A DNA stretch of 43,525 nt from Escherichia coli (GTDB taxonomy: Bacteria > Pseudomonadota > Gammaproteobacteria > Enterobacterales > Enterobacteriaceae). Position numbers and translations under genes: made by a program. The stretch lies in NCBI RefSeq assembly GCF_003334255.1, contig NZ_QOWU01000046.1; one strand, given 5' to 3'. Under the pieces are notes generated by a model that ran no database searches, had not been told where the DNA came from, and was given only the letters and a program-made list of their open reading frames with translations. Below are positions 14,232 through 35,908 of the stretch, one piece after another (the stretch's first letter is position 1; the number at the start of each line of letters is the position of its first letter).

Positions 14232-14479
14232 ATTTCCCCCGTTCAGTTTTGCAGGTGAGTTTTGAACAAATGTATTTCTGCTTTTAATTTGTTCATAACC
14301 TTAGGTGGACATTGCACATATTTCCGACGAATAGATCACAATTTATGCTATTTTGATTTTCACGGTTGCGTTTGTTCATGCTCGTAGAGTCAAACTGTGG
14401 TTGCCATCACAGATATAAATGAGCAAGAACTGAACAATTGCATTAAAGATTTAAATATGTTCAAAGTGAAGAATGAATT
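14232..14479. promoter_or_regulatory. Divergent lsrA / lsrR promoter-operator region
   Basis: 248-bp AT-rich gap between the divergent lsrACDBFG and lsrRK start codons; contains the CRP-like site listed separately. Confidence 0.7.
14396..14411. promoter_or_regulatory. CRP-like binding site TGTGG-N6-TCACA
   Basis: Sequence TGTGGttgccaTCACA matches the CRP consensus TGTGA-N6-TCACA at 9 of 10 positions; the lsr operon is known to be cAMP-CRP dependent. Confidence 0.55.
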
Positions 14480-15511: not shown

Positions 15512-17104
15512 ATGGCTCGACTCTTTACCCTTTCAGAATCAAAGTACTACCTGATGGCGCTGGATGCAGGCACCGGAAGTATTCGGGCTGTGATATTCGA
15601 CCTGGAAGGCAATCAAATAGCAGTGGGACAGGCGGAGTGGCGGCATCTGGCAGTACCGGACGTTCCTGGTTCTATGGAATTTGATCTCAACAAAAACTGG
15701 CAACTGGCGTGTGAGTGTATGCGCCAGGCGCTGCACAACGCCGGCATAGCCCCGGAGTATATCGCTGCCGTTTCGGCATGTTCGATGCGTGAAGGCATTG
15801 TTTTATATAATAATGAAGGAGCCCCGATCTGGGCCTGCGCCAATGTGGATGCCAGAGCGGCACGCGAAGTTAGCGAACTTAAAGAACTGCACAACAATAC
15901 CTTTGAAAACGAAGTTTATCGCGCGACCGGACAAACACTGGCTTTAAGTGCCATCCCCAGATTACTTTGGCTGGCGCACCATCGTTCCGATATTTACCGT
16001 CAGGCATCAACCATCACCATGATCAGCGACTGGCTGGCCTATATGCTCAGCGGCGAACTGGCGGTGGATCCCTCTAACGCTGGCACCACGGGACTTCTTG
16101 ATCTAACCACCCGTGACTGGAAACCTGCATTGCTGGATATGGCTGGCCTACGTGCCGATATTCTTTCTCCTGTCAAAGAAACCGGCACATTGCTGGGCGT
16201 GGTAAGTTCACAAGCGGCGGAACTCTGCGGTCTGAAGGCGGGCACTCCGGTGGTCGTTGGAGGAGGCGACGTGCAGCTTGGTTGCCTTGGGTTAGGCGTT
16301 GTGCGTCCGGCACAAACCGCGGTTCTTGGCGGCACATTCTGGCAGCAAGTTGTAAATTTAGCCGCGCCGGTGACAGACCCAGAAATGAACGTGCGCGTTA
16401 ATCCTCATGTTATTCCTGGCATGGTACAAGCTGAATCTATAAGCTTTTTTACCGGACTCACCATGCGCTGGTTCCGCGATGCTTTCTGTGCCGAAGAAAA
16501 ACTGATTGCCGAACGTTTAGGCATCGACACCTATACGCTGCTGGAAGAGATGGCCAGTCGGGTGCCGCCTGGGTCGTGGGGCGTAATGCCGATCTTCTCC
16601 GACAGAATGCGCTTTAAAACCTGGTATCACGCTGCGCCTTCCTTTATTAACTTGTCCATTGACCCGGATAAATGTAACAAAGCGACATTGTTCCGTGCGC
16701 TGGAAGAAAATGCGGCGATTGTATCAGCGTGTAACTTGCAGCAAATTGCTGATTTCTCGAATATTCATCCTTCATCGTTAGTCTTTGCAGGCGGAGGTTC
16801 AAAAGGGAAATTATGGAGTCAAATTCTCGCTGATGTCTCGGGATTACCCGTCAATATTCCGGTGGTCAAAGAAGCCACTGCATTAGGATGTGCCATTGCA
16901 GCTGGCGTCGGTGCCGGAATTTTTTCATCAATGGCAGAAACCGGAGAACGCCTGGTTCGCTGGGAACGGACGCACACACCAGACCCGGAAAAGCATGAAC
17001 TTTATCAGGATTCACGCGATAAGTGGCAGGCAGTTTATCAGGATCAGCTGGGGCTGGTTGATCATGGACTGACGACGTCGTTATGGAAAGCGCCTGGGTT
17101 ATAG
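15512..17104 (+). CDS. lsrK: Autoinducer-2 kinase LsrK (FGGY carbohydrate kinase family)
   Basis: 530-aa ORF ([30 protein letters not shown]...). Confidence 0.9.
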
Positions 17105-17112
17105 TTTCATTG

Positions 17113-17148
17113 ACAGCCACATCATGATGACCGTGGCTGTTAGTTTTT
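17113..17148 (+). terminator. Rho-independent terminator downstream of lsrK
   Basis: ACAGCCAC-(12-nt loop)-GTGGCTGT stem followed by TAGTTTTTG. Confidence 0.65.
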
Positions 17149-17634
17149 GAGTATAGTTATTCTTATTTCCCTTCTTTTAGAGCTGGCTTGTTAAAAGCCA
17201 GCTTGCAGATTCATCGTTCCATCACCAGTACTATATTCAAGGGAAAATTGCTATTTTTCTTAAAGCATTAAGCACAACCCTTATTTTATAGCGAATATTC
17301 CTAAAGACACTAATGGATGCAAAAGGGGTTTAATAAACTTCGATTTTTAGCAATTAGTGCTATTCTTTGTTAAATATGATGATGATAATTTTCCTATTGA
17401 AAGAAACAGTTTTCTTATTAAGCAACAATAACTCATAGTTCATATTTAAATAAAATAAGAACTATGCAATTTTTAATCTATCAATTCGAAAGCATTAGCA
17501 AATTAGCCAAATTGACACCTTCCCACCTCCAACTAACACTCAATACAGACCTCTGACAATTTAATAAGTTTCATTTTTAATGTCTGACGACTCATCTCTT
17601 TCGTGGCTGTATTGTTTGTATATGGAGCGTTTAT

Positions 17635-20600
17635 ATGAATAGAATCTATCGCGTGATATGGAATTGCACTCTACAGGTATTTCAGGCCTGCTCGGAATTA
17701 ACTCGCAGGGCAGGTAAAACATCGACGGTTAATTTGCGTAAATCCTCTGGACTGACAACGAAATTCAGTAGATTGACGCTGGGTGTTTTGCTGGCACTAA
17801 GCGGTTCAGCGTCTGGTGCAAGTCTGGAAGTTGATAATGATCAGATTACCAATATTGATACTGATGTTGCTTATGATGCCTACCTGGTTGGCTGGTATGG
17901 CACTGGAGTGCTTAATATTTTGGCTGGCGGTAATGCCTCCTTAACCACTATTACTACCAGCGTCATTGGCGCTAATGAGGACTCAGAGGGCACCGTTAAT
18001 GTTTTGGGTGGCACCTGGCGATTGTATGATAGCGGAAATAATGCAAGGCCTTTAAATGTGGGTCAATCCGGAACGGGGACGCTGAATATTAAACAGAAGG
18101 GTCACGTCGATGGAGGCTATTTAAGATTAGGTTCTTCGACAGGAGGCGTCGGGACGGTCAATGTTGAGGGAGAGGACTCTGTTCTGACGACCGAATTATT
18201 CGAAATAGGTAGCTATGGCACAGGTTCATTAAATATTACGGATAAGGGTTACGTCACGAGTTCAATCGTCGCCATTTTAGGCTATCAGGCGGGCAGTAAT
18301 GGCCAGGTTGTCGTTGAAAAGGGTGGCGAGTGGCTAATAAAAAATAATGATTCCTCAATTGAATTTCAAATTGGTAATCAAGGAACTGGGGAGGCGACTA
18401 TTCGCGAGGGGGGGTTGGTTACGGCTGAAAATACGATTATCGGTGGCAATGCCACCGGTATCGGAACCCTGAATGTGCAGGATCAAGACTCTGTCATCAC
18501 GGTACGCAGACTCTATAATGGATATTTCGGTAATGGCACAGTCAATATTTCCAATAATGGACTGATTAATAACAAAGAATATTCATTGGTGGGCGTTCAG
18601 GACGGTTCCCACGGTGTCGTCAACGTGACCGATAAAGGGCATTGGAATTTCCTCGGAACGGGCGAAGCTTTCCGCTATATCTATATCGGTGATGCTGGCG
18701 ACGGTGAACTTAATGTCTCGAGTGAAGGCAAAGTAGATTCGGGAATTATCACTGCGGGGATGAAAGAAACAGGCACAGGCAACATTACTGTTAAGGATAA
18801 GAACTCCGTTATCACTAATCTCGGAACTAATCTTGGTTATGACGGCCACGGCGAAATGAATATCAGTAATCAGGGGCTTGTTGTCAGCAACGGAGGAAGT
18901 TCACTCGGTTATGGAGAAACCGGCGTCGGGAATGTCAGCATCACCACGGGGGGAATGTGGGAGGTCAATAAGAATGTCTATACCACCATTGGTGTTGCGG
19001 GCGTCGGAAACCTCAATATTAGCGATGGCGGTAAGTTCGTATCGCAAAATATTACTTTTTTGGGCGATAAAGCAAGCGGTATCGGCACACTGAACCTGAT
19101 GGATGCGACATCATCGTTCGATACTGTGGGTATCAATGTCGGTAATTTTGGTAGCGGTATCGTAAATGTCAGTAATGGTGCCACCCTTAATTCAACGGGC
19201 TATGGATTTATCGGAGGAAATGCCTCCGGTAAGGGGATAGTTAATATTTCAACGGACAGTCTCTGGAATTTAAAGACATCATCTACTAACGCACAATTGC
19301 TACAGGTCGGTGTATTAGGCACGGGTGAACTGAATATTACCACCGGAGGTATAGTTAAAGCGCGTGATACACAGATAGCTCTCAATGACAAAAGTAAGGG
19401 CGACGTGAGGGTGGATGGGCAGAACTCTCTTCTTGAAACATTCAATATGTACGTAGGGACATCTGGTACGGGTACGTTAACCCTGACGAATAACGGTACG
19501 CTGAATGTCGAAGGTGGAGAAGTTTACTTAGGTGTTTTTGAGCCTGCTGTAGGAACGCTAAACATTGGTGCTGCTCACGGTGAGGCGGCGGCAGATGCCG
19601 GATTTATCACCAATGCGACGAAAGTGGAGTTTGGTCTTGGCGAAGGCGTTTTTGTCTTTAATCATACCAATAACAGTGATGCCGGCTACCAGGTCGATAT
19701 GCTGATTACAGGTGACGATAAAGACGGAAAAGTGATCCATGATGCAGGCCATACGGTGTTCAATGCAGGGAATACTTATAGCGGTAAAACGCTGGTCAAT
19801 GACGGCCTCCTGACCATTGCGTCTCATACGGCAGATGGGGTAACGGGCATGGGGTCGAGTGAAGTAACCATTGCAAACCCCGGTACGCTCGACATTCTCG
19901 CATCAACGAACAGTGCAGGAGATTACACGCTGACCAATGCGCTCAAAGGCGATGGCTTGATGCGAGTGCAGCTGTCATCCTCCGACAAGATGTTTGGCTT
20001 TACCCATGCAACAGGGACTGAATTCGCCGGTGTTGCCCAACTGAAAGACAGTACCTTCACTCTGGAACGCGACAACACCGCTGCGCTTACTCACGCGATG
20101 TTGCAGTCTGACAGTGAAAATACCACATCGGTAAAAGTTGGAGAGCAATCCATTGGTGGACTGGCCATGAATGGAGGTACCATCATTTTCGATACGGATA
20201 TTCCTGCTGCGACGCTCGCGGAGGGATATATCAGCGTCGATACGCTGGTTGTCGGCGCGGGTGACTACACCTGGAAAGGCCGTAACTATCAGGTAAACGG
20301 GACGGGCGACGTGCTTATCGACGTGCCTAAACCGTGGAATGATCCCATGGCGAATAACCCTCTGACGACGCTCAATTTGCTGGAACACGACGATAGCCAT
20401 GTCGGCGTTCAACTGGTGAAGGCGCAAACGGTTATTGGGTCGGGTGGCTCATTAACGTTACGTGATTTACAGGGCGACGAGGTGGAAGCGGACAAAACGT
20501 TACACATTGCGCAAAACGGAACGGTGGTCGCCGAGGGTGATTATGGATTCCGCCTCACGACCGCACCAGGTAATGGTTTGTACGTTAACTATGGGCTGAA

Positions 20601-31044: not shown

Positions 31045-31057
31045 TGCCTCTTCTCAT

Positions 31058-31088
31058 TTCTTCTGCTGTCATCCGCACAGCAGAAGAA
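31058..31088 (+). terminator. Hairpin downstream of ydeP (weak U-tract)
   Basis: TTCTTCTGCTGT-(7-nt loop)-ACAGCAGAAGAA perfect 12-bp stem. Confidence 0.4.
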
Positions 31089-31162
31089 TTCCTCATTGAC
31101 TATTATTTCGCAATTTGCTCACATGGATTAAATTAAACTACATACTATAAGATATAAACTTC

Positions 31163-31180
31163 TGCCTACAGCTGTAAGAA
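31163..31180. promoter_or_regulatory. EvgA-box-like palindrome upstream of safA-ydeO
   Basis: TGCCTACA-GC-TGTAAGAA; the surrounding ~55 bp are closely similar to the ydeP upstream module at 28504-28560. Confidence 0.55.
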
Positions 31181-31291
31181 ACTCCGCTCAGTACTGAAGC
31201 ACCAGTCCTATTTCCTCTTTTCTCCAGCCTGTTATATTAAGCATACTGATTAACGATTTTTAACGTTATCCGCTAAATAAACATATTTGAA

Positions 31292-31489
31292 ATGCATGCG
31301 ACCACAGTGAAAAACAAAATCACGCAAAGAGACAACTATAAAGAAATCATGTCTGCAATTGTGGTTGTCTTATTACTGACACTTACGTTGATAGCCATTT
31401 TTTCGGCAATTGATCAGCTGAGTATTTCAGAAATGGGTCGCATTGCAAGAGATCTTACACATTTCATTATCAATAGTTTGCAAGGCTGA
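31292..31489 (+). CDS. safA: Small membrane connector protein SafA (EvgS-to-PhoQ signalling)
   Basis: 65-aa ORF (MHATTVKNKITQRDNYKEIMSAIVVVLLLTLTLIAIFSAIDQL...) with a single transmembrane segment, immediately upstream of ydeO. Confidence 0.85.
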   Translation: MHATTVKNKITQRDNYKEIMSAIVVVLLLTLTLIAIFSAIDQLSISEMGRIARDLTHFIINSLQG

Positions 31490-31563
31490 AAACAAACAGC
31501 AAATTATAAATATGAAATGTTAAAAAAGTATCGATAAAAACTTTATTGTTTTAAGGAGATAAA

Positions 31564-32325
31564 ATGTCGCTCGTTTGTTCTGTTATATTTATTCATCATG
31601 CCTTCAACGCTAACATTTTAGATAAAGATTACGCCTTCTCTGACGGCGAGATCCTGATGGTAGATAACGCTGTTCGTACGCATTTTGAACCTTATGAGCG
31701 GCATTTTAAAGAGATCGGATTTACTGAAAATACCATTAAAAAATATCTACAATGCACTAACATCCAGACAGTGACGGTGCCTGTTCCTGCGAAGTTTTTA
31801 CGTGCTTCAAATGTACCGACTGGATTGCTTAATGAAATGATTGCTTATCTCAACTCGGAAGAACGCAATCATCATAATTTTTCAGAACTTTTGCTTTTTT
31901 CTTGCCTGTCTATTTTTGCCGCATGCAAAGGTTTCATTACACTATTAACTAACGGTGTGCTATCCGTTTCTGGGAAAGTGAGAAATATTGTCAACATGAA
32001 GCTGGCGCACCCATGGAAGCTGAAAGATATTTGTGACTGCCTGTACATCAGTGAAAGCCTGTTGAAGAAAAAACTTAAGCAAGAGCAAACGACATTCTCA
32101 CAGATTCTTTTAGATGCAAGAATGCAGCACGCAAAAAATTTGATACGCGTAGAAGGTTCAGTCAATAAAATTGCCGAACAATGTGGTTATGCCAGTACAT
32201 CTTATTTTATTTATGCGTTCCGCAAACATTTCGGCAACAGTCCGAAGAGAGTTTCTAAGGAGTACCGTTGTCAAAGTCACACGGGTATGAATACGGGCAA
32301 CACGATGAATGCTTTAGCTATTTGA
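31564..32325 (+). CDS. ydeO: AraC-family acid-resistance regulator YdeO
   Basis: 253-aa ORF with a C-terminal AraC-type HTH (IAEQCGYASTSYFIYAFRKHFGNSPK). Confidence 0.9.
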   Translation: MSLVCSVIFIHHAFNANILDKDYAFSDGEILMVDNAVRTHFEPYERHFKEIGFTENTIKKYLQCTNIQTVTVPVPAKFLRASNVPTGLLNEMIAYLNSEERNHHNFSELLLFSCLSIFAACKGFITLLTNGVLSVSGKVRNIVNMKLAHPWKLKDICDCLYISESLLKKKLKQEQTTFSQILLDARMQHAKNLIRVEGSVNKIAEQCGYASTSYFIYAFRKHFGNSPKRVSKEYRCQSHTGMNTGNTMNALAI

Positions 32326-32373
32326 TTATTTGCTAACGAGTAGTCAACCACACACGCTGCGTAAGAATTAAAT

Positions 32374-32406
32374 GGGGCAGCCATTCCCTGCCCCGCGTTG
32401 TTTTTA
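32374..32406 (+). terminator. Rho-independent terminator downstream of ydeO
   Basis: GGGGCAG-ccattcc-CTGCCCC stem followed by GCGTTGTTTTT. Confidence 0.7.
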
Positions 32407-32726
32407 GGCGATATATTTATTGAAATAAATAAGTGACATCCATCACATATTTATGCACTTGCATAACCTGTTGCATGATTATTTATGATCTCAATTCTGC
32501 ATTTTGTCAGTAAAATGCAATAATTTATTAAATATCAATAAATTAGTTGTTTATCGGCGAGAAATTACTTAATAGAACAGAAAGTAATGTCAACGCTTTA
32601 TGGACTGTTTTTTCCCTTTTTTTAGCTAAATCTGCTATCTCTTTATGTGACTAACTTCACTTACATCCACTTATTTCTCTTCGTAAAATTACTTTGGAAT
32701 TAAGTACAATAAGAAGAGGAACATTT

Positions 32727-34460: not shown

Positions 34461-35618
34461 ATGCACGTTACAGCCAAGCCCTCCAGTTTTCAATGTAATC
34501 TCAAATGTGATTACTGTTTTTACCTTGAAAAAGAGTCGCAGTTTACTCATGAAAAATGGATGGATGACAGCACTCTGAAAGAGTTCATCAAACAATATAT
34601 CGCAGCGTCTGGCAATCAGGTCTATTTTACCTGGCAAGGCGGTGAACCCACTCTGGCTGGCCTGGATTTTTTCCGTAAAGTTATTCACTATCAACAACGC
34701 TATGCAGGCCAAAAACGTATTTTTAATGCATTACAAACGAATGGCATTTTATTGAATAATGAATGGTGTGCCTTTCTCAAAGAACATGAATTTCTGGTTG
34801 GTATCTCGATCGATGGCCCCCAGGAGTTACATGACCGTTACAGACGCAGTAATTCAGGTAACGGTACTTTTGCAAAAGTGATAGCAGCCATCGAGCGTCT
34901 GAAATCATATCAAGTAGAGTTTAATACGTTAACCGTCATTAATAACGTTAATGTCCATTACCCTCTTGAGGTTTATCATTTTTTAAAATCTATCGGCAGT
35001 AAACATATGCAATTTATCGAATTGCTAGAAACCGGGACGCCGAATATTGATTTCAGTGGTCATAGTGAGAACACATTCCGTATCATTGATTTTTCTGTGC
35101 CTCCCACGGCTTATGGCAAGTTTATGTCAACCATTTTTATGCAATGGGTTAAAAACGATGTGGGTGAAATTTTCATCCGTCAGTTTGAAAGCTTTGTCAG
35201 CCGTTTTTTGGGGAATGGGCATACCAGTTGTATTTTCCAGGAGTCCTGCAAGGATAATCTGGTTGTTGAAAGTAATGGAGACATTTACGAATGCGACCAT
35301 TTTGTCTATCCACAGTACAAAATTGGAAACATTAATAAATCTGAACTCAAAACGATGAACAGTGTACAACTGACAGCGCAAAAAAAACGGATTCCAGCGA
35401 AATGTCAGCAATGTGCATATAAACCTATCTGCAATGGCGGTTGTCCTAAGCATCGTATTACTAAAGTAAACAATGAGACTGTTTCTTATTTTTGCGAAGG
35501 TTATAAAATCCTTTTTTCAACCATGGTACCTTATATGAACGCCATGGTAGAGTTAGCTAAGAACAGAGTACCGCTTTACCACATTATGGATGTTGCAAAA
35601 CAAATGGAGAATAATTAA
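34461..35618 (+). CDS. ydeM: Anaerobic sulfatase-maturating enzyme homolog (radical SAM)
   Basis: 385-aa ORF starting [21 protein letters not shown] (CxxxCxxC radical-SAM cluster) with additional C-terminal Cys clusters typical of SPASM/anSME proteins. Confidence 0.88.
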
Positions 35619-35703: not shown

Positions 35704-35908
35704 CATCATCATCTTCCCTTGCGAAAATCCTGGCTTACGTGGTATGCATCAGGGCATTAGCAATATCCTTGATTATCAATAGCATAACCATAACCACTGA
35801 AAATGAAATATTCCTTTATATTTCATATTGTTAAATGATACTTAAATAAATTTCATCAGTAAATCATTGCCATAGATAATCATTGGATGGCACAATCAAT
35901 TTTCGCTA

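Follow-up and report, generated by a model that had tools for sequence, protein, structure and literature searches.

AT-rich DNA upstream of the autotransporter gene yneO of Escherichia coli as a probable H-NS-bound regulatory region

The autotransporter gene yneO of Escherichia coli is preceded by a long, strongly AT-rich gap, and the question this locus raises is whether that DNA is a leader transcribed with the gene or a regulatory region at which the gene is silenced. The original prediction, made from the sequence, described some 430 bp before the adhesin ORF as an AT-rich leader with A-tracts, grouped it with five similar gaps (before ydeP, safA, ydeN, yddA and gadB), and took the pattern as typical of H-NS-silenced, horizontally acquired genes that are normally repressed. 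We have evaluated this proposal in a 43.5-kb window (the whole stretch of DNA analysed), which is 99.96-99.98% identical to MG1655 (NZ_CP184745.1 1558600-1602130, reverse complement) and is the E. coli K-12-type lsr–yneO–hipBA–ydeP–safA/ydeO–gadB chromosome segment. The MG1655 RefSeq annotation, transferred onto the window, gives the gene order ptrR, sad, glsB, yneG, dgcF', uxaB, yneE, tam, lsrGFBDCA, lsrR, lsrK and yneO, followed by hipBA, the yneL'/ydeT' remnants, ydeSRQ, ydeP, safA, ydeO, ydeN, ydeM and yneP, and finally yddA, yddB, pqqL and the start of gadB (43206). Here yneO (17635-23055, + strand) is intact and encodes an ECSE_1600-family AIDA-type autotransporter of 1806 aa with an ESPR signal peptide.

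We conclude, with a probability of roughly 0.75, that the 530-bp gap between lsrK and yneO is the upstream regulatory region of yneO, AT-rich and H-NS-bound, rather than a long transcribed leader. Our model reads, from 5' to 3', as two lsrK-distal hairpins, the first of them terminator-like, then some 345 bp of very AT-rich DNA that published assays have found to bind H-NS and RNA polymerase and that holds a high-affinity MarA-type marbox, then a putative core promoter at most about 125 bp before the ATG, and lastly a short 5'UTR, predicted to be unstructured, with a GGAG.

Layout and conservation of the gap

Immediately after lsrK (15512-17104), RNA folding on the + strand identifies a hairpin with a 12-bp stem (17109-17144) followed by the U-run UUAGUUUUUG, the whole element (17109-17152) resembling an intrinsic terminator. 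None of 200 shuffles was equally stable (fold -17.4 kcal/mol, z = -4.5), and we suggest that this is probably the terminator of lsrK. A second strong hairpin, GCUGGCUU/AAGCCAGC (17180-17204, + strand), has a similar fold energy (-17.7 kcal/mol, z = -3.7) and lacks a T-run. Its 3' end, 17204, is also the coordinate at which the original prediction began the leader. Consensus promoter and terminator scans of 17000-17800 returned nothing, the simple terminator scan having passed over the lsrK hairpin.

At the other end of the gap, conservation marks out a candidate core promoter on the + strand (17512-17540), with a perfect TTGACA element at 17512-17517, AACACT 17 bp further on, and the adjacent conserved block CAATACAGAC. 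From its sequence, this candidate would start transcription near 17547 and give a 5'UTR of about 88 nt. The best-match sigma-70 promoter of the spacer in Table 2 of PMC3946193, which we located in the window, is CTGACA-17-TTTAAT (17553-17581, + strand); its implied start would be near 17588, with a 5'UTR of about 47 nt. The alignments show a highly conserved 5'UTR segment (17591-17634, + strand), in which the Shine-Dalgarno GGAG (17624-17627) lies 8-11 nt before the yneO ATG, and the proximal 5'UTR RNA has no notable structure (fold z = +1.36).

In an alignment of seven diverse E. coli strains, the gap varies at 10.9% of its columns compared to 2.0% in the 3' end of lsrK. Variation is unevenly spread, at 4.2% of columns in the last 144 bp before yneO and 10-15% in the distal AT-rich part, and TTGACA-17-AACACT is invariant. 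Outside E. coli, the sole yneO relative recovered is that of Pseudocitrobacter vendiensis and one metagenomic twin (83% protein and 87% DNA identity), and the comparative footprint accordingly spans two lineages, E. coli and Pseudocitrobacter. A protein database search for yneO gave nearly only truncated E. coli fragments, and a protein scan of GTDB species representatives gave one true relative and three contaminant contigs. Three seemingly divergent matches (L020, L022 and L023) were rejected as extra lineages, each having an E. coli-type leader. An invariant 22-mer of the leader had no exact match in the GTDB species representatives, which probably reflects the E. coli representative being what we take to be a B2 strain.

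The genes upstream of the Pseudocitrobacter relative are different ones (BLUF-EAL and MlrA-like), and the 307-bp gap that precedes it is AT-rich too (GC 0.33). By BLAST, homology to the window begins 43 bp ahead of the ATG; three conserved islands emerge from a global alignment, namely the marbox half-sites, TTGACA-17-RACACT with CAAnACAGAC, and the 5'UTR. TTGACA-17-RACACT is retained amid diverged flanks. Because this element is conserved in Pseudocitrobacter and CTGACA-17-TTTAAT is not, we consider TTGACA-17-AACACT the likelier core promoter of the two. As the conserved promoter elements are no more than about 125 bp away from the ATG, the greater part of the 430 bp is probably regulatory DNA before the promoter that would not be transcribed with yneO, and the label “leader” is a misnomer; we keep it below as shorthand for the interval.

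A MarA site within the AT-rich tract

The core of a MarA/SoxS/Rob-type marbox, GCACTAATTGCTAAA, is found at 17346-17360 on the - strand, “backward” relative to yneO and about 282 bp before its ATG; the window has no other match to it. In ETEC H10407, MarA ChIP-seq identified this same sequence as the site at yneO, one of 33 targets, and purified MarA binds it at 0.3 uM, the lowest concentration tested (Sharma et al. 2017, PMC5684230, Table 1). Because the site sequence is identical, we would expect the MarA occupancy seen in ETEC H10407 to extend to the window. The marbox is kept in seven of seven E. coli strains, with a single variant, GCATTAATTGCTAAA, that is the proven ybjC marbox. In Pseudocitrobacter and E. 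coli it has the same orientation, 283 and 288 bp from the ATG, and a different 5-bp spacer. That the yneO marbox and the TTGACA element are both conserved in a second genus appears to be new relative to the literature searched.

These observations could be taken to mean that activation by MarA, SoxS or Rob is the primary control of yneO, with AT-richness and H-NS binding secondary or irrelevant: the marbox is perfect, it is bound by MarA both in vivo and in vitro (PMC5684230, ETEC H10407), two genera have maintained it and its distance from the ATG, and the one natural variant is itself a marbox of proven high affinity. The position of the site argues against this. The nearest conserved -35 (TTGACA) lies about 160 bp downstream of it, and relative to the two candidate starts it is at about -194 or about -235, a placement that misfits the class I or II geometry relative to promoters established for the mar/sox/rob regulon and leaves the site outside the promoter positions that define that regulon. 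MarA, moreover, occupies many sites without known regulatory output; we found no report of MarA-dependent yneO or ydeK expression in the literature searched, and the other five AT-rich gaps would be left unexplained. On balance, we regard primary control by MarA, SoxS or Rob as quite improbable.

A different role for the site would combine it with H-NS. MarA, SoxS or Rob, bound at the marbox about 282 bp before the ATG and inside the H-NS-coated tract, would disrupt the H-NS filament, and the disrupted filament would allow the weak TTGACA-17-AACACT promoter to open. The marbox would then be a conserved counter-silencing switch for the YneO surface autotransporter. We put this forward as speculation and consider it unlikely. 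In its favour, the half-sites, their orientation and their distance from the ATG have been kept while the spacer, most of the surroundings and the upstream genes have changed. If it is true, expression of YneO would be coupled to drug, oxidant or bile stress. The promoter that yneO uses, like any regulation of yneO by the marbox, is suggested by these comparisons.

The distance of about 282 bp from marbox to ATG, too great for class I/II activation of the proximal promoter, can also be read in favour of a true long 5' leader that starts at a promoter close to the marbox (for instance, with GATAAT at 17384-17389) and is controlled at the RNA level, whether by attenuation, as an sRNA target or through a leader peptide. 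A MarA-dependent promoter just below the marbox would yield a leader of about 240 nt, and an RpoS-SELEX peak (PMC5493296) would fall near 17216 by our mapping. However, the promoter scans found no correctly spaced -35/-10 pair beside the marbox, no segment has diverged more between E. coli and Pseudocitrobacter than that from the marbox to TTGACA, and the promoter-like elements that are conserved are the proximal ones. Nor did the search for RNA elements or a leader peptide favour such control: Rfam gave no family at the gathering score in the whole window, its sole match at E<=1 in 17000-17750 was HOTAIR, which is not credible, and the short ORFs in the gap (20-30 aa) have no distinguishing features. 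We conclude that a long, regulated leader is very unlikely.

Base composition and H-NS occupancy

Over the intervals originally singled out, the GC content is 0.306 for the leader (17204-17634) and 0.330, 0.337, 0.284, 0.322 and 0.277 for the gaps before ydeP (28432-28764), safA (31090-31291), ydeN (32407-32726), yddA (35704-35908) and gadB (42881-43205), respectively. True gene boundaries give similar values. The lsrK/yneO gap (17105-17634, 530 bp) has a GC of 0.321, and every RefSeq E. coli record sampled has “None” for annotated features in it. The ydeQ/ydeP gap (28432-28764), the promoter region of ydeP, has 0.330, the ydeO/ydeN gap (32326-32726) 0.322, the divergent yneP/yddA gap (35707-35908) 0.322, and the pqqL/gadB gap (42845-43205), the promoter region of gadBC, 0.302. 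The ydeP/safA gap has 0.360 and forms one unbroken AT-rich island (31045-31710) with safA, the safA/ydeO gap and the 5' end of ydeO. Coding GC across the window is 0.486. AT-rich islands also occur beyond the six gaps, at lsrA/lsrR (14232-14479, GC 0.343) and in the 74-bp safA/ydeO gap (GC 0.19); the ptrR/sad gap of the same window has a GC of 0.360.

As a control, we used the intergenic gaps of at least 200 bp (n = 34) in four evenly spaced 50-kb stretches of MG1655 (200 kb, RefSeq annotation), which have a mean GC of 0.418 (median 0.407, sd 0.066, minimum 0.284). The six gaps (GC 0.30-0.36) are lower (one-sided Mann-Whitney p = 5.9e-5) and remain lower when compared to only the promoter-containing (non-convergent) control gaps, which average 0.406 (p = 1.3e-4); five of the six fall below 33 of the 34 control gaps. 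A 200-bp sliding scan gave nine islands with GC <=0.34 in the window and 23 in the 200-kb control, which make up 8.4% and 4.3% of positions, respectively. The lowest 200-bp GC in the window, 0.24, is in the lsrK/yneO island, and 0.017% of control 200-bp windows reach this value. The six gaps are significantly below the control GC, and the possibility that they simply match the intergenic average can therefore be set aside; the AT-richness claimed for the DNA before the adhesin ORF and for the other five gaps is borne out. The A-tracts named in the original prediction are no more frequent than composition predicts. In the leader, runs of four or more A or T number 13 (12.7 +/- 2.3 in dinucleotide shuffles), and in none of the six gaps do A-tract counts or the 10-11 bp AA/TT periodicity rise above such shuffles. 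Intrinsic curvature from phased A-tracts was rejected on the same grounds, counts and periodicity both being at the level set by composition.

One might still argue that the gaps are the low tail of ordinary promoter-region composition with no special silencing role, given that control gaps are already AT-rich (mean 0.418, or 0.406 with promoters), that each gap singly is 0.9-1.8 sd under the intergenic mean (z-scores -0.9 to -1.8), that lsrA/lsrR and ptrR/sad are alike in the same window and that A-tracts are not enriched, but six low-GC gaps in 26 kb against one gap <=0.33 per 200 kb of control (p = 6e-5), the leader minimum seen in 0.017% of control windows and the H-NS occupancy reported for four of the gaps make this the least probable reading of all.

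The preferred reading, a regulatory region bound by H-NS, draws on published binding data. Panyukov & Ozoline 2013 (PMC3661553) described 78 “promoter islands” in MG1655, AT-rich stretches, 300 bp or longer and very densely packed with predicted starts (by the PlatProm definition, at least eight predicted start points per 100 bp over at least 300 bp), which bind RNA polymerase and H-NS and yield little full-length RNA. Three of the 78 are located in the window: ydeK/lsrK (345 bp), ydeO/safA (327 bp) and gadB/pqqL (392 bp). In Table 1 of PMC3661553, all three carry the mark “A”, denoting H-NS binding in three of three ChIP-chip studies (the data sets of Grainger, Oshima and Kahramanoglou, as compiled there), so that the comparison with H-NS ChIP data suggested by the original prediction agrees with it for the lsrK/yneO, safA/ydeO and gadB/pqqL regions. 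By an inferred coordinate conversion, the ydeK/lsrK island (U00096.2 1596197, 345 bp) would occupy about 17205-17549, the most AT-rich part of the window; the conversion from U00096.2 was checked with four SELEX peak coordinates (PMC5493296), which land in the correct gaps. The ydeO/safA island is enclosed by the AT-rich island at 31045-31710, and the pqqL/gadB gap corresponds to the third published H-NS-bound island. The promoter-island property hinges on the PlatProm algorithm: a plain sigma-70 consensus scan fails to reproduce the promoter density, with 0 sites compared to 2.3 in shuffles, or 6 compared to 13.9 when relaxed.

Table 2 of Shimada et al. (PMC3946193) places RpoD-holoenzyme SELEX sites in the yneO/lsrK, ydeP/ydeQ and ydeN/ydeO spacers, with an HNS mark on the first two and none on ydeN/ydeO, and RpoS-holoenzyme SELEX selected the ydeK/lsrK, ydeN/ydeO and gadB/pqqL spacers (PMC5493296). 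The ydeP promoter region thus has both an H-NS SELEX mark and an H-NS gel shift, as Krin et al. 2010 (PMC2984483) found that ydeO and ydeP promoter fragments are preferentially shifted by H-NS in gels. The same study reported a glutamate-dependent acid survival of 51.7% in an hns mutant, compared to 0.1%. The yneP/yddA gap is absent from PMC3946193 and the literature searched gave no binding data for it; likewise, we found there no H-NS data on the ydeN and yddA gaps and no report of yneO/ydeK expression in an hns mutant. The published H-NS data derive from K-12 strains, and the leader here is one base off MG1655.

The claim that the six gaps are H-NS-silenced therefore stands in part. H-NS binding has been published for four of them (lsrK/yneO, ydeQ/ydeP, safA/ydeO and pqqL/gadB), for three in the island compilation cited above, and for these four the H-NS reading was itself already published; nothing was found for the ydeN and yddA gaps in the literature searched. 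Normal repression holds for the acid-resistance pathway, where the hns mutant has a phenotype (PMC2984483), and for yneO itself we infer silencing by H-NS from occupancy.

In a scan for the H-NS nucleation motif TCGATAAATT with up to two mismatches, the leader has no good match, only two overlapping matches with two mismatches (17475-17486). The pqqL/gadB gap has two matches with one mismatch (43149-43164), the ydeO/ydeN gap has six with at most two mismatches, and the whole window has 80, compared to 57.8 +/- 7.5 expected. A high-affinity nucleation motif of this kind helps H-NS silencing and is not obligatory. We suggest that H-NS would polymerise along the AT-rich tract, that RNA polymerase would be occluded or trapped, and that yneO would in this way be kept silent in laboratory conditions. 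The same H-NS logic applies at ydeP, safA-ydeO and gadBC, for which both repression by H-NS and its lifting by EvgA/YdeO/GadE/GadX-type activators are established.

Distribution of yneO and comparison with known systems

The yneO protein matches NCBIfam NF011422 with 4178 bits over residues 1-1806 of 1806, and its role as an adhesin is a prediction for the ECSE_1600 family. The gene is intact here by virtue of a G7 run at 21589-21595, where MG1655 has G8 and consequently a frameshift. Its GC of 0.504 equals the genome average (0.44-0.48 in the first 2.2 kb and 0.51-0.55 in the remainder). Low-GC genes in the window are safA (0.374), ydeO (0.394) and ydeM (0.387), all called foreign by several predictors; ydeP has 0.503. 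One of five foreign-gene predictors flags yneO, and none flags the gadB/pqqL island (PMC3661553).

Of 5426 complete E. coli genomes, 4230 (78%) carry the yneO leader. In the same 5426 genomes, presence is 98.2% for ydeQ/ydeP, 99.3% for safA-ydeO and 99.6% for pqqL/gadB, with 99.8% for the uxaB control. The acid-resistance gaps are found in at least 98% of the genomes, and any acquisition is therefore ancient, before the diversification of the species. The SE11 genome paper reports yneO as absent from phylogroup B2, which it reads as loss, and as truncated in MG1655, E24377A and Sakai. In this strain type, the annotation from lsrK to gadB shows no integrase, tRNA or direct-repeat mobility signatures. 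The different gene context in Pseudocitrobacter, together with the lack of a relative among the other species representatives, is in keeping with yneO having been an accessory, mobile gene and does not prove it. The view that these genes were horizontally acquired thus has mixed, partial support: in its favour are the low GC of safA, ydeO and ydeM (0.37-0.39) and a yneO leader that is present in 78% of genomes and absent from B2; it is weakened by the average GC of yneO, the single predictor that flags it and the near-universal acid-resistance gaps.

In other strains, these AT-rich gaps are recurrent sites of IS1 and IS5 insertion, and in about 5% of the leader-carrying genomes the leader is split or truncated. 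Both elements favour AT-rich, H-NS-bound DNA, and our reading is that the recurrent insertions are a by-product of AT-rich DNA. Their recurrence in these gaps appears to be new relative to the literature searched. An origin of the AT-rich tract as a mobile-element scar was rejected: this strain has no IS ends there, and the IS1/IS5 copies in other strains arrived later and have target duplications of their own.

Overall, the AT-richness is real and the H-NS interpretation is partly supported, and both mostly restate what has been published for K-12. Among the closest known systems is the set of K-12 promoter islands (PMC3661553), which are the same loci with the same sequence (one mismatch in the 530-bp gap); the difference is that yneO downstream is intact here and frameshifted in K-12. 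It follows from the intact gene that, unlike in K-12, the question of a silent adhesin can be tested in this strain type. The ydeP, safA-ydeO and gadB gaps are members of the group of H-NS-silenced acid-resistance promoters (gadA/gadBC, gadE, gadX, ydeO, ydeP and hdeAB; PMC2984483), and the genes here are core (at least 98% of E. coli genomes), not recent imports. Raw base composition by itself thus correctly identifies regulatory regions with published H-NS binding in an intensively studied part of the E. coli chromosome.

Several E. coli autotransporter adhesins, such as UpaC and EhaG/UpaG, are cryptic and repressed by H-NS, with AT-rich upstream DNA, silence in the laboratory and frequent decay to pseudogenes. 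yneO resembles them in encoding an AIDA-type or ESPR autotransporter behind an AT-rich upstream region. With the marbox promoters of the mar/sox/rob regulon (PMC5684230), the yneO site GCACTAATTGCTAAA shares binding by MarA and differs in its position, which is outside class I/II. Its conservation at a fixed distance from the ATG makes the interplay of MarA and H-NS at an autotransporter promoter the subject of a concrete and cheap experiment.

AT-rich spots and the H-NS motif

Two AT-rich spots in the window lie beyond those listed in the original prediction: the divergent promoter region between lsrA and lsrR (14232-14479), which has a GC content of 0.343, and the 74-bp gap between safA and ydeO (31490-31563), which at 0.19 has the lowest GC content of the window. 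The high-affinity H-NS motif, TCGATAAATT, has a single exact copy in the window, on the minus strand at 35011-35020; it sits in the low-GC coding sequence of ydeM, and none of the gaps of the window contains an exact copy.

Insertions and deletions

Other strains repeatedly carry IS elements in these AT-rich gaps, namely in the leader upstream of yneO (within the lsrK/yneO gap, 17105-17634), in the safA-ydeO region and in the pqqL/gadB gap. The leader is split or truncated in about 220 of the 4225 genomes that carry it. In window coordinates, the insertions or breaks in the strains named below lie at ~17256-17263, ~17310-17320 and 17466/17467. The leader of strain N1718 carries an IS5 and that of YJ1 is broken at a similar position (~17256); LR-71-1 has an IS1, the leader of EP91B being broken at a similar position (~17320), and EC102 combines an IS1 with a deletion. 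An IS1 is also found between safA and ydeO in strains L73 and PSS-04, and upstream of gadB in XJ55.

Relative to MG1655, the window itself lacks sequence at two places. At ~6905-6909, 91 bp internal to yneE (6790-7613) are missing, with a 5-bp TTTTC microhomology flanking the junction; the gene is 824 bp long (915 bp in MG1655) and out of frame. At ~25211, the interval from the yneL remnant to the ydeT remnant, both pseudogenes, lacks about 470 bp.

The yneO gene

In the window yneO (17635-23055), which encodes an AIDA-type autotransporter, is intact and specifies the full-length protein of 1806 amino acids. The homopolymer at 21589-21595 is G7, whereas the MG1655 pseudogene has one additional G (G8). 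In many strains yneO is annotated as frameshifted or truncated, and truncated N-terminal pieces of the protein number in the dozens in the protein database. This run of G may be a hotspot of slippage. The base composition of the gene is in two parts: the initial ~2.2 kb, corresponding to the N-terminal passenger, has a GC content of 0.44-0.48, and the remainder is mostly at 0.51-0.55, falling to ~0.49 near the 3' end.

yneO-like loci under other organism labels

The protein scan of genome contigs matched three (L016, L018 and L019) from assemblies labelled Candidatus Nanosynbacter (MAG), Marinomonas sp. SBI8L and Limosilactobacillus vaginalis, whose proteins are 92-100% identical to E. coli yneO. 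The DNA of L016 is 99% identical to the window across 5.7 kb, including the lsrK end. All three almost certainly derive from E. coli, through contamination or mis-binning.

The Pseudocitrobacter vendiensis locus contains two cores of the marbox, a MarA/SoxS/Rob-type site, against 0.01 expected (283-297 and 2717-2731 of the locus). One is upstream of the yneO homologue and the other upstream of the adjoining BLUF-EAL gene, the latter recalling the MarA site of E. coli ycgF/ycgZ.
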